Below, piece by piece: positions 48,823 to 51,781 of a stretch of 64,000 nucleotides of DNA (within the stretch, counting starts at the first letter, position 1; each line of letters starts with the position of its first letter). The position numbers were made by a program, and so were the translations under genes. The stretch lies in assembly GCA_963796685.1 (NCBI GenBank), contig CAWCMR010000015.1:320001-384000 (forward strand), in the 5' to 3' direction. The stretch comes from an uncultured delta proteobacterium (lineage in GTDB: Bacteria; Myxococcota_A; Polyangia; Fen-1088). The notes under the pieces were generated by a model. It worked only from the letters and a program-made list of their open reading frames with translations, was not told the origin of the DNA and did no database searches.

Positions 48823-49875
48823 GAGGGTGACTTCCCTTATGTAGCACATCGATCGGCTAGACGGTCAACCCGTATTGAGCGTGGTCGAAGCAAGACCTCG
48901 CCTGTCGAAATCCCGCCTGGCACGGTACGCGACAGCCTTGAGCTGGAGCGGGCGATGGAGTGGCCCGCTTTCCGTCCTCCAAGCACGCGAAGGCTGCGCC
49001 TGGTTTTGCCAGGGCCAGAGCGCGCGAGGCCGAGCGAAGCGAGCGGGGTGGTGGGTGGTGGTGGCGGGTAGGGGCCGAGGGTTTGGCGAGGCCGCGCGCA
49101 GCGCGGGGGGTGGCAAGCGGGGTGGCGGGTGCCGAGCAGGAGGGTATGGGAACCCTCCGAGGGATCCCATCACCCGCGTAGGCGAAGGCGAGCTTTGCTC
49201 GGCTCCGCCAGAGCGCGCGAGGCCGAGCGAAGCGAGCGGGGAGGAGGGTGGCGGGTAGGGGCCGAGGGTATGGGAACCCTCCCAGGAACCCTCCCAGTAC
49301 GGCCGCCGGGGCGAAGGCCCGGATCCTTCAGGCGTGAAACGTGACAGCCCCTCACCCGCCTCGCTGCGCTCGGCGACCTCTCCCCGCTTCGCTTCGCTAC
49401 GCGGGGCGAGGTGTTTCAGGTCAGGGATCCCATCACCCGCGTAGGCGAAGGCGAGCTTTGCCCGCCGGAGCCAGAGCGCGCGAGGCCGAGCGAAGCGAGC
49501 GGGGAGGAGGGTGGCGGGTAGGGGCCGAGGGTATGGGAACCCTCCCAGGAACCCTCCCAGTACCGCCGCCGGGGCGAAGGCCCGGATCCTTCAGGCGTGA
49601 AACGTGACAGCCCCTCACCCGCCTCGCTGCGCTCGGCGACCTCTCCCCGCTTCGCTTCGCTACGCGGGGCGAGGTGTTTCAGGTCAGGGATCCCATCACC
49701 CGCGTAGGCGAAGGCGAGCTTTGCCCGCCGGAGCCAGAGCGCGCGAGGCCGAGCGAAGCGAGCGGGGAGGAGGGTGGCGGGTAGGGGCCGAGGGCATGGG
49801 AACCCTCCCAGTACCGCCGCCGGGGCGAAGGCCCGGATCCTTCAGGCGTGAAACGTGACAGCCCCTTGTATCTTA

Positions 49876-50120
49876 CGGGGGACTGGCTCGCTCTCGCTCG
49901 CAGTCCCCCGGTCCCCCCTCGCTTCGCCCAGCAAAGCTGGGCTACGCTCGCCCCCAAAGGCGAAGGAGCACGACGAGATTCAACGGCACGACAGACCGAT
50001 GCCCCTCAGGTCACAAAGACCGTGGGTGAGCGAGGGTCGTCGTGTCGACTTTCACAAGCAGCCCGAACAGATGAGAGGGCCTCGAGCCCGCATACTCCGC
50101 AAGGCTGGGCATACCAAGAG
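49876..50120 (+). ncRNA. predicted bridge RNA in the IS110 left non-coding end
   Basis: Target loop with GATGCCCCT (49998-50006) and GTGGGTGAG (50022-50030); donor loop with ACAGATG (50067-50073) and CAAG (50100-50103); RNA ends approximate. Confidence 0.8.
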
Positions 50121-50145
50121 CAGAAGTCCTTCGCGAAAGGAGCCC

Positions 50146-51096
50146 GTGACACCAACAGCTGACACATTCGTAGGTATCGACGTCTCCAAGGCCACGCTCG
50201 ACGTCCATGTCTTGCCGGCCAAAAGAGCCTGGTCCACCCCCAATCAAGACAACACGGTGCGCGCTCTTTGCAAAGAGTTGGCCGCCCTGAACGTCACCCT
50301 CATCGTTCTTGAGGCCACCGGTGGACTCGAACGACGCGTGCTTGCGGCGCTCCTCGCTGCCAACCTGCCCGCTGTCGTCGTCAACCCCAGACGCGTTCGC
50401 GACTTCGCCAAGGCCAACGGCTGTCTCGCGAAGACCGATGCCCTGGACGCCGCCATGATCGCTCTTTTCGCCGAACGAATACGGCCACCCGTCCGCCCGC
50501 CTGTCGACGCAGAGACCCAGGAGCTTGCCGCCCTTCTCGCCAGGCGCAGGCAGGTGGTCGACATGATCACTGCCGAGAAAAACCGTCTCAGCGCTGACCC
50601 TCCCTCCAAGCGCGTGCAGAGGGCCATCCGCAGGACCATCTCCTACCTCGAAAAGCAGCTCGACGAGGTGGACAACGACATCGACACGGCCATCGGCAAT
50701 TCCTCGGTCTGGAAAGCCAAGGACGACATCATCCAAAGCGTTCCAGGAGCTGGCCCCGTCCTCTCTCGCACCATCCTGTCCCATGCCCCTGAGACTGGAA
50801 CCCTCAACCGCAAGCAGATCGCAGCCCTCATCGGTGTTGCTCCACTCAACCGGGACAGCGGCACCCTGCGCGGCCGCCGCATCATCTGGGGCGGCCGCAC
50901 CGAAGTCCGCAACGTCCTCTACATGGCCACCCTAGCTGCCATACGCTTCAACCCAGTCATCGCCAGATTCCACGCTCGGCTAGTCGCCGCAGGAAAGCTC
51001 AAGAAGGTCGCCATCGTCGCCTGTATGCACAAGCTGCTCACCATCCTCAACGCCATGTTGCGCTCTAACTCGCGCTGGCAAACCACGGAGATTTGA
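50146..51096 (+). CDS. IS110 family DEDD recombinase/transposase
   Basis: AAAGGAG RBS, GTG start; GIDVSK, LEATG, KTDALDA, G..P...DSG catalytic Ser, A..HKL. Confidence 0.96.
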
Positions 51097-51098
51097 CC

Positions 51099-51104
51099 TT
51101 GACT
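51099..51104 (+). promoter_or_regulatory. -35 box of the circle-junction promoter
   Basis: TTGACT; joining right end to left end places TATCTT (49869-49874) exactly 17 bp downstream. Confidence 0.8.
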
Positions 51105-51781
51105 AGGAACACAGATGCTCACCCGCCTCGCTGCGCTCGGCGACCTCTCCCCGCTTCGCTTCGCTATGCGGGGCGAGGTGTTTCAGGTCAGGGATCCCAT
51201 CACCCGCGTTGGCGTAGGCGAGCTTTGCTCGCCGGAGCCAGAGCGCGCGAGGCCGAGCGAAGCGAGCGGGGAGGAGGGTGGCGGGTAGGGGCCGAGGGTA
51301 TGGGAACCCTCCCAGTACGGCCGCCGGGGCGAAGGCCCGGATCCTTCAGGCGTGAAACGTGACAGCCCCTCACCCGCCTCGCTGCGCTCGGCGACCTCTC
51401 CCCGCTTCGCTTCGCTACGCGGGGCGAGGTGTTTCAGGTCAGGGATCCCATCACCCGCGTTGGCGTAGGCGAGCTTTGCTCGCCGGAGCCAGAGCGCGCG
51501 AGGCCGAGCGAAGCGAGCGGGGAGGAGGGTGGCGGGTAGGGGCCGAGGGTATGGGAACCCTCCCAGTACGGCCGCCGGGGCGAAGGCCCGGATCCTTCAG
51601 GCGTGAAACGTGACAGCCCCTCACCCGCCTCGCTGCGCTCGGCGACCTCTCCCCGCTTCGCTTCGCTACGCGGGGCGAGGTGTTTCAGGTCAGGGATCCC
51701 ATCACCCGCGTTGGCGTAGGCGAGCTTTGCTCGCCGGAGCCAGAGCGCGGGAGGGTATGGGAACCCTCCCAGGGTTCCCAT

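Follow-up and report, generated by a model that had tools for sequence, protein, structure and literature searches.

A probable IS621-like, bridge-RNA-guided insertion sequence in a tandem host repeat of an uncultured Polyangia bacterium, with left-end remnants that stop at its guide-coding core

The analysis of a 64,000-nucleotide stretch of DNA from an uncultured delta proteobacterium (contig CAWCMR010000015.1; hereafter the window) identified an insertion sequence (IS) of the IS110 group at positions 49867-51119. We consider it very probable that this element is intact, has been mobile recently and works like IS621 of Escherichia coli, the founding bridge-RNA IS110 element (PMC11208160; PMC11208158). 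The assignment to this class rests on the anatomy of the element, the covariation of its RNA, the matches between its guides and its sites, and the distribution of its copies. That the element is programmable and active we infer by analogy, and the circle, transcription and catalysis are likewise attributed to it from what is described for the family. The element is a further example of a class known since 2024 and not a new class. A sequence-only reading of the same DNA had proposed the IS621 design; every sequence that it quoted was present in its place, and all of the features of that design that can be tested in the letters were found, namely the domains, the catalytic residues, the two-loop RNA, the guides, the handshake, the CT core, the promoter and the sites.

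The element measures 1253 bp including the right CT core, its boundaries being set by the flanks, and it lies on the forward strand, as do the features given below unless stated otherwise. The dinucleotide CT was present at both junctions (left, 49865-49866; right, 51118-51119), as the same core at each junction in place of a target-site duplication, and the same arrangement was seen in all seven copies in the genome of origin (G000; 26 contigs, 7.3 Mb, 64.6% G+C). Across the two junctions the window reads GTGACAGCCCCT/TGTATCTTACGG on the left and ACACAGATGCT/CACCCGCCTCGC on the right, a slash marking the junction here and below. The left target, ACAGCCC with the left CT core (49858-49866), and the right target, CACCCGC (51120-51126), both lie within the host repeat. 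The element itself supplies the right donor TGTAT (49867-49871), which is conserved at the beginning of orthologous left ends, and the left donor ACAGATG with the right CT core (51111-51119, of which ACAGATG occupies 51111-51117). The non-coding left end comprises the 279 nt upstream of the gene and the right end comprises 23 nt; a ribosome-binding site, AAGGAG (50137-50142), stands ahead of the GTG start.

The recombinase gene (50146-51096) encodes 316 amino acids, with an N-terminal DEDD RuvC-like domain (DEDD_Tnp_IS110, PF01548, 2.7e-23) and a C-terminal Tnp domain with its serine (Transposase_20, PF02371, 9.6e-17). Only two relatives of solved structure were found at E ≤ 0.001. The best was the ISCro4 transposase (PDB 9t56; residues 8-308, E 2.9e-31), a likeness by protein sequence match alone, and the other was IS621 (PDB 8wt6, 1.2e-26). 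The residues D12, E56, D98, D101 and S238 align with the identical residues 13, 62, 104, 107 and 243 of the 8wt6 chain. PMC11208158 names D11, E60, D102, D105 and S241 as catalytic in IS621; the chain numbering of 8wt6 runs two residues above that of the paper, and the residues faced in 8wt6 are those named as catalytic. The identical protein sequence is already held by NCBI and ENA, and its 90% cluster has 40 members, of which 16 are named, those listed only as 'transposase'.

The left end encodes a two-loop RNA framed by conserved stems. Eighty orthologous loci from many phyla were fetched, with protein identities from 99% to ~38%, and a 135-nt core upstream of the gene was aligned from 13 of them. 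In the RNAalifold consensus of these 13 sequences, two basal stems, the first of 13 bp with a bulged A and the second of 4 bp, were each followed by an inner hairpin. In this alignment 96.9% of the cells were paired, compared with 33-44% when the partners were slid, and 15 of the 25 pairs were compensatory; none of 500 shuffles reached any of the five measures used. A covariance model built from the same sequences gave 75 matches in 81 sources, all on the strand of the recombinase and directly upstream of its gene, with a single match in the window (49980-50115). Across the 75 matches, 94.9% of the cells were paired and 22/25 pairs were compensatory, figures that lean towards the model since the alignment was fitted to it. 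The search of the genome of origin with this model returned only the seven copies, so no second bridge-RNA family visible to it is present there. The sequence-only reading had proposed a covariation check of this region, and its outcome supports the two-loop structure.

The target-binding loop (49984-50047) has a basal stem (49984-49997 with 50034-50047, bulged A at 49993) that was found both in the single-sequence minimum free energy (MFE) fold and in the covariation consensus. This is the stem described previously, and GATGCCCCT (49998-50006), the inner hairpin GGTC-ACAAA-GACC (50009-50021) and GTGGGTGAG likewise lie within it as described. The left target guide (LTG) region is at 49999-50006, with the matching GCCCCT at 50001-50006; the right target guide (RTG), GTGGGTGAG, is at 50022-50030, followed by the handshake bases CG (50031-50032). 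The donor-binding loop (50061-50110) has the basal stem GCCC/GGGC (50061-50064 with 50107-50110) and an inner hairpin at 50077-50089. It holds the left donor guide (LDG), ACAGATG, at 50067-50073, the right donor guide (RDG) region at 50090-50103 (AT at 50092-50093, G at 50099, CAAG at 50100-50103) and the handshake bases GC at 50104-50105. ACAGATG and CAAG lie in this loop as had been read, and the stem then given for it, CAGCC/GGCTG, was a few bases off. That stem was rejected: the two 5-mers are complementary, but GCCC/GGGC is the stem that covaries in orthologues, and the GGCT of the former is the end of the right donor guide together with the handshake guide.

The guides were defined according to section 7 of PMC11208160 and to PMC11208158. 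On the 5' side of the target loop, G-AUGCCCCU-CA contains GCCCCU, which equals the left target plus core, at six of the nine positions. On the 3' side, G-UGGGUG-AG (GUGGGUGAG) pairs with CT-CACCCG of the window flanks (8/9, plus one G:U), which bears out the previous description of this guide as the complement of the right target with one wobble. GCCCCU, the left guide, is identical in sequence to the top strand, with which the right guide GUGGGUGAG pairs. In the donor loop, ACAGAUG on the 5' side equals the left donor at 7/7 positions. The 3' side reads GC-AU-ACUCC-G-CAAG, in which, in keeping with the IS621 scheme, AU pairs with donor positions 13-14, G stands opposite T12 and CAAG pairs with donor positions 8-11; the unpaired insert of this guide has five bases here and two to five among the orthologues. 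At the handshake, C50031 pairs with donor position 7 (G51117) and not with target position 7 (C49864), and G50104 pairs with target position 7 (C49864) and not with donor position 7 (G51117). This rule held family-wide in 60/65 and 28/30 guide sets; as most of these positions are near-invariant, the agreement is one of consistency and not of strong covariation. Among the orthologues, the left flank matched its own LTG at 6.09 of 9 positions, against 3.93 of 9 for shuffled pairings (n = 33), and the right flank matched its own RTG at 7.18 of 9, against 4.35 of 9 (n = 38); the boundary calls were crude, and the clearly mis-called rows (L041, L062, L068 and L077) were kept in these counts.

The uninterrupted 16-mer ACAGCCCCTCACCCGC is present five times in the window (39768, 49344, 49607, 51362 and 51613), with 0 expected in 100 shuffles. 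A tandem array of 251-263-bp units (95-99% matches; 49160-49866 and 51118-51754) holds the element and four empty copies of the target, and the fifth empty copy (39768-39783) lies 10 kb upstream. The CT cores and these uninterrupted sister repeats confirm that a host repeat is split at CT by 1253 bp, as had been read. Throughout the genome of origin, the empty 11-mer GCCCCTCACCC was found 121 times, against 17.6 expected from composition, and CCCCTCACCC was found dispersed at 183 places in at least five flank classes; the abundance of the 11-bp site follows from its location in several GC-rich host repeat families. In every repeat subfamily the site is followed, 10-25 nt further downstream, by a conserved GC-rich hairpin. 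The predicted single-stranded DNA fold of one host repeat unit had a z of -1.5, and 18 of 200 shuffles folded as well. As the fold is not better than that of shuffles, the host repeat is not called a repetitive extragenic palindromic (REP) element here; of the earlier 'REP targeting', the targeting of a dispersed host repeat stands, and REP is at most a loose label. The 'new target specificity' once attributed to the element was overstated. The orthologue L027, from an alphaproteobacterial metagenome-assembled genome (56% protein identity), has an LTG ending in GCCCCU and the same RTG, sits in GCCCCT/CACCCC, and its guides specify the same target core.

The seven copies in the genome of origin comprise six that are uninterrupted and 100% identical over 1253 bp and one that is split by an intron; fragments are also present. 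All seven right junctions read /CACCC, the next bases being GCC, TGT or TAG. The left-end starts read CCCCT/ in 12 of 14 cases, 11 of these with a G in front, and the two other left flanks, GCTCCT (C11:109258) and AGCCCCT, both belong to truncated remnants. The insertion sites come from at least three repeat subfamilies and have only the guide-matched 11 bp in common, with CCCCT/CACCC shared at the core. Copies at unrelated sequences had been named beforehand as evidence against bridge-RNA guidance; the genome-wide comparison of copies and flanks showed that they share this site instead. Near-identical full left ends were found in two further genomes of the genus, eight of them in one genome (G042). 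In a second genome (G001/G041), one full copy sits in CCCCT/CACCC and a partial copy is followed by CACTC. The same genome carries a 173-bp mini element (L099:1501-1673; G001:C2:825781-825953) that combines left-end positions 1-125 with the final 43 nt of the right end. Flanked by ACCCCT and CACCCGG, it keeps both donor halves and the -35 box, and has no loops and no gene.

A -35 hexamer, TTGACT (51099-51104), is located in the 23-nt right end and a -10 hexamer, TATCTT (49869-49874), in the left end. Joining 51119 to 49867 would give TTGACT-17 bp-TATCTT, a sequence with the potential of a sigma-70 promoter. The junction promoter previously proposed is thus made up of hexamers at these positions, and its geometry is kept in orthologues: in a set of 33 distinct junctions from orthologues, the -35, spaced at 17 bp, agreed at 5/6 bases or more in 26, the -10 at 4/6 or more in 25, and both in 20. 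A consensus promoter scan of both strands of the linear sequence 49700-51300 gave no promoter-like site. Public runs with the element numbered 24, all available as contigs, and four of them (X1, X6, X15 and X16) were compared with the window, where a stretch without contig cover proves nothing. Soil metagenomes from several studies contained the element, and a single contig of 1287 nt corresponds to 49861-51147 with seven differences. The joints observed in the contigs involve the flanking tandem repeat. At window position 50014, in the loop of the inner hairpin of the target loop, the contigs of all four runs read G and not C, a neutral-looking variant in other soils.

Taken with the IS621 model, these features suggest the following mechanism. 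The 279-nt left end would be transcribed into a bridge RNA that guides a DEDD/Ser recombinase. One loop of this RNA would read the genomic target GCCC-CT-CACCC(R) and the other the joined ends of the element, ACAGATG-CT-TGTAT. Circular excision would join the right and left ends and create the TTGACT-17-TATCTT promoter, from which the RNA, and probably also the recombinase gene, would be expressed, and recombination at the CT cores would then insert the circle at a further copy of the 11-bp site.

Several observations weigh against this interpretation. The contigs of the four public runs contained neither a circular-junction nor an empty-site joint, that is, a joint that goes back or that skips the 1253 bp. 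Contigs from RNA libraries cover 49939-50090, including the target loop, and begin at 49939-49941 in two studies, which does not in itself demonstrate transcription; as this region belongs to a widespread repeat of much higher depth, nothing was drawn from them. The left guide previously given as GATGCCCCT stands only in part: its GCCCCT matches the left target, and LTG positions 1-3 (GAU) mismatch the occupied sites, which vary there, so that 6/9 positions match and the effective guide is 6 nt. The LDG base opposite the core C is a mismatched A, as it also is in L044, L081, L080 and L071. The MFE fold of the whole left end was marginally better than that of shuffles (z -1.97), and as the single-sequence fold is weak by itself, covariation was relied on instead. 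The Rfam scan of the region, a database from which a bridge-RNA family is absent, gave as its sole match a weak one to sX15 on the opposite strand.

One alternative is that the element is complete but an immobile relic, its identical copies having arisen by duplication of host segments and not by transposition. The missing circle and empty-site joints, the mismatched LDG core position and the many decayed remnants in the genome would fit this explanation. Six uninterrupted copies without a single difference over their length, the flanks of which differ beyond the 11-bp site, lie in different repeat subfamilies and are spread over four contigs, argue against it, as do the intact open reading frame with all of its catalytic residues and the eight near-identical full left ends in the congeneric G042, and we regard it as highly unlikely. 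A second alternative, that this is an IS110 element for which the protein or a DNA structure picks the site, with the left-end resemblance being incidental or a captured host sequence, appears to us extremely improbable. It would draw on the high GC content and similar motifs of both the host repeats and the left end, which make short matches easier to obtain, on the homology between host repeats and the 5'-most 85 nt of the left end, on the conserved hairpin downstream of the site in all subfamilies, and on a structural determinant reported for ISPpu10 in a preprint abstract (10.64898/2026.03.19.712850). However, the matching segments stand at the exact loop positions that covary with the flanks in 33-38 orthologues whose targets are unrelated, the stems that enclose the loops contain 15-22 compensatory pairs, the handshake positions agree with the guide model, and the guide-matched 11 bp is the sole sequence common to the sites of different subfamilies. 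Guidance of a recently mobile element by its bridge RNA was accordingly retained as the preferred interpretation.

The likeness to IS621, as described in the two founding papers, extends from the DEDD RuvC-like and Ser Tnp recombinase with aligned catalytic residues to the left-end bridge RNA with the target loop followed by the donor loop, each composed of a stem, a 5' guide, an inner hairpin and a 3' guide, and to the bulged A in the basal stem. Also shared are the CT core, the split right donor guide (AU ... G-CAAG), the handshake guides directly 3' of the core-pairing G, the sigma-70 promoter rebuilt at the right-left junction, and insertion into dispersed host repeats. The two elements differ in that the proteins are distant (a phmmer match only) and in that the 279-nt left end carries ~100 extra nt (stem-loops SL1-SL3) before the target loop. 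The left guide is effectively 6 nt (GCCCCU) with a 2-nt linker in this subclade, whereas it is described as 9 nt with 1 in IS621; the right target guide has 8-9 nt compared with 4, and the right donor guide has 5 unpaired nt compared with 2. At the LDG position opposite the core C, where the present element has A, IS621 is reported to have a pairing C, and the target, GCCC-CT-CACCC, is different from that of IS621. ISPpu10 and ISPpu9 of Pseudomonas putida (PMC12288879; 10.64898/2026.03.19.712850) are comparable by description, as members of the IS110 family whose insertion sites are repeated palindromic sequences in intergenic DNA; for ISPpu10, a hybrid promoter on the circle is reported. The element adds, from a soil bacterium of high GC content, a compact bridge recombinase (316 amino acids) that has evidently been mobile recently; its natural guide layout is unlike that of IS621 and could serve comparative engineering. 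Published descriptions of the bridge-RNA class and its logic date from 2024, thousands of orthologues have been predicted, and the side observations are more informative than the instance itself.

Among these are the truncated left ends. The 14 left-end starts in the genome of origin comprise the seven of the full copies and seven that are truncated, and in four of the latter, at four loci, the left-end sequence breaks off at the CT core of the LTG-coding DNA, or no more than 3 nt from it, and gives way to the host right target. Two stop exactly there, reading GACCGATGCCCCT/CACCC (C8:212939-213081 and C25:1109421-1109562); one stops 3 nt short (C25:234099-234236), and the fourth (C25:1543315-1545526) is decayed. 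For the remaining three truncated ends, the stop lies at left-end positions 43, ~61 and 106. The same junction, CCGATGCCCCT/CACCC, was found in two more short pieces (C5:354715 and C25:1597156). In another genome, a related IS with a different left guide, UUUGCCCU, has a solo left end (L107:1501-1645; G005:C10) that stops at its own LTG core and is joined to the right target of its own element, CTCCCC. In G042, a tandem arrangement was identified (L163:228-1619; G042:C21:13327-14718), in which the host CCCCT is followed by left-end positions 1-140 ending in GATGCCCCT, then by a full 1253-bp copy and then by CACCCGCC. The left junction of that copy is a normal one, GATGCCCCT/TGTATC, and the full copy is thus joined exactly at the guide-coding core of the solo left end, which indicates that guide-coding sequence has provided the left half of an actual insertion site. 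Another instance (L164; G042:C14:1-900) lies at a contig end; its upstream flank is identical to that of the first, and the two may be one locus.

We tentatively propose that the recombinase also accepts the LTG-coding DNA of its own element as a recombination site, a reading that we consider possible and not yet the probable one. By construction, the LTG-coding DNA presents a 9/9 left half-target, GATGCCC-CT. Recombination between this internal CT and that of the right junction would yield a 141-bp solo left end, and the new junction, GATGCCC-CT-CACCC, would be a better target than any natural site and might then be re-used. The truncated left ends could instead stem from ordinary microhomology-mediated deletion, without recombinase action on the guide-coding DNA. 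The internal site (CCCT-CA-GG) and the right junction (GCT-CA-CC) share a 4-nt microhomology, CTCA, that gives the same product, and three of the seven truncated ends stop elsewhere. We regard this explanation as rather unlikely, as it has to contend with four of the seven ends, at four different loci, falling at this one site, with the related IS in another genome stopping at the core of its own, different guide, and with the full copy in G042 joined at exactly this point of a solo left end. If recombination at guide-coding DNA does occur, bridge-RNA elements would carry an inherent risk of targeting themselves, in a way comparable to CRISPR self-targeting, and this would explain both the recurrent left-end remnants and the tandem arrangements of a solo left end with a full copy. 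The natural record suggests such use of guide-coding DNA as a site and thereby bears on the off-target or half-match behaviour of bridge editors. Terms related to this idea are absent from the half-match preprint, the wider literature not having been searched for it. IS621 was sought in E. coli genomes through the Klebsiella orthologue L070 without a match, and the solo-left-end idea was thus tested in this host family alone.

The match to sX15 (Rfam RF02234) in the window was sub-threshold (29.4 bits; 49974-50125, minus strand). In the Xanthomonadaceae orthologues, by comparison, the same family scored 147-149 bits, again on the minus strand (L088:1309-1466, L090:1309-1466 and L091:64-222), and these matches overlie the match of the bridge-RNA model on the opposite strand. 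The plasmid pXCV183 (NC_007507.1) carries a 251-bp left-end remnant at 116313-116565 in minus orientation. In Table 1 of PMC3300014, sX15, a Xanthomonadaceae small RNA (sRNA), is placed at 116378-116536 (+) and the complementary asX7 at 116528-116459 (-), and the two are presented as a Northern-verified sRNA pair from 2012. In the Xanthomonadaceae orthologues, sX15 falls on the locus that encodes the bridge RNA; unlike the bridge RNA, sX15 is modelled on the strand opposite the recombinase gene and is not annotated as IS110-related. As the model lies on the opposite strand, it describes an antisense transcript and not the bridge RNA. By these coordinates, asX7 would be the sense RNA of the target-loop half and sX15 the antisense RNA, and this mapping implies an abundant antisense transcript opposite a bridge RNA. 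No paper naming both sX15 and IS110 was found in the literature searched.

The RNA gene has a 5' extension (49877-49963) that in the MFE fold forms SL1 (49877-49909), SL2 (49926-49942) and possibly SL3 (49948-49963); in the SL1/SL2 consensus, 8/18 pairs were compensatory. Left-end positions ~3-87 (window 49869-49953, containing SL1 and SL2) match dispersed and tandem intergenic repeats in 54 of the 89 genomes of the host's order, with at most eight candidates scored per genome, and all 54 belong to one family. The RNA gene thus has its 5' module in common with a repeat family spread through the taxonomic family of the host. One such repeat, in G043 (L165; G043:C25:80233-80549), is 96% identical, and no full left end of the IS was found in that genome; further examples are L166 and L105-L130. 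More distant relatives of the IS carry a variant of the module that corresponds to the repeats of their own genome, and orthologues outside this host family are without it. A sensitive BLAST search of the genome of origin with left-end positions 1-115 returned IS-derived copies only, from which the dispersed 5'-module repeat is taken to be absent there.

The module is also the site of a nested intron. A 2075-bp group II intron on the opposite strand was identified at left-end position 55/56 (window 49921/49922) of two IS copies (L132:150-2224, that is, G000:C11:75849-77923; and G000:C25:1543397-1545471), immediately after SL2 as read on the strand of the intron. It scored 79.7 bits with group-II-D1D4-3 and 46.6 bits with Intron_gpII in Rfam, and its open reading frame encodes a reverse transcriptase and maturase (RVT_1, 1.7e-42; GIIM, 2.7e-15). 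A BLAST search with the intron gave 11 hit rows in the genome of origin, one of them at a contig end.

Separate modules of another kind are described for ISPpu9, where alternative sub-element circles are reported to leave them behind, a point of likeness to the solo left ends; going by the abstract, these modules are not bounded by guide-coding DNA, and the RNA lies downstream of the gene, unlike the present element. Finally, one copy of the host repeat in the genome of origin (C25:706137-706150) reads ACAGATGCT/CACCCGCC, with the 7-nt left donor and core in place of ACAGCCCCT. This copy lies just past the stop codon of a gene, and no other IS sequence was present upstream of it.

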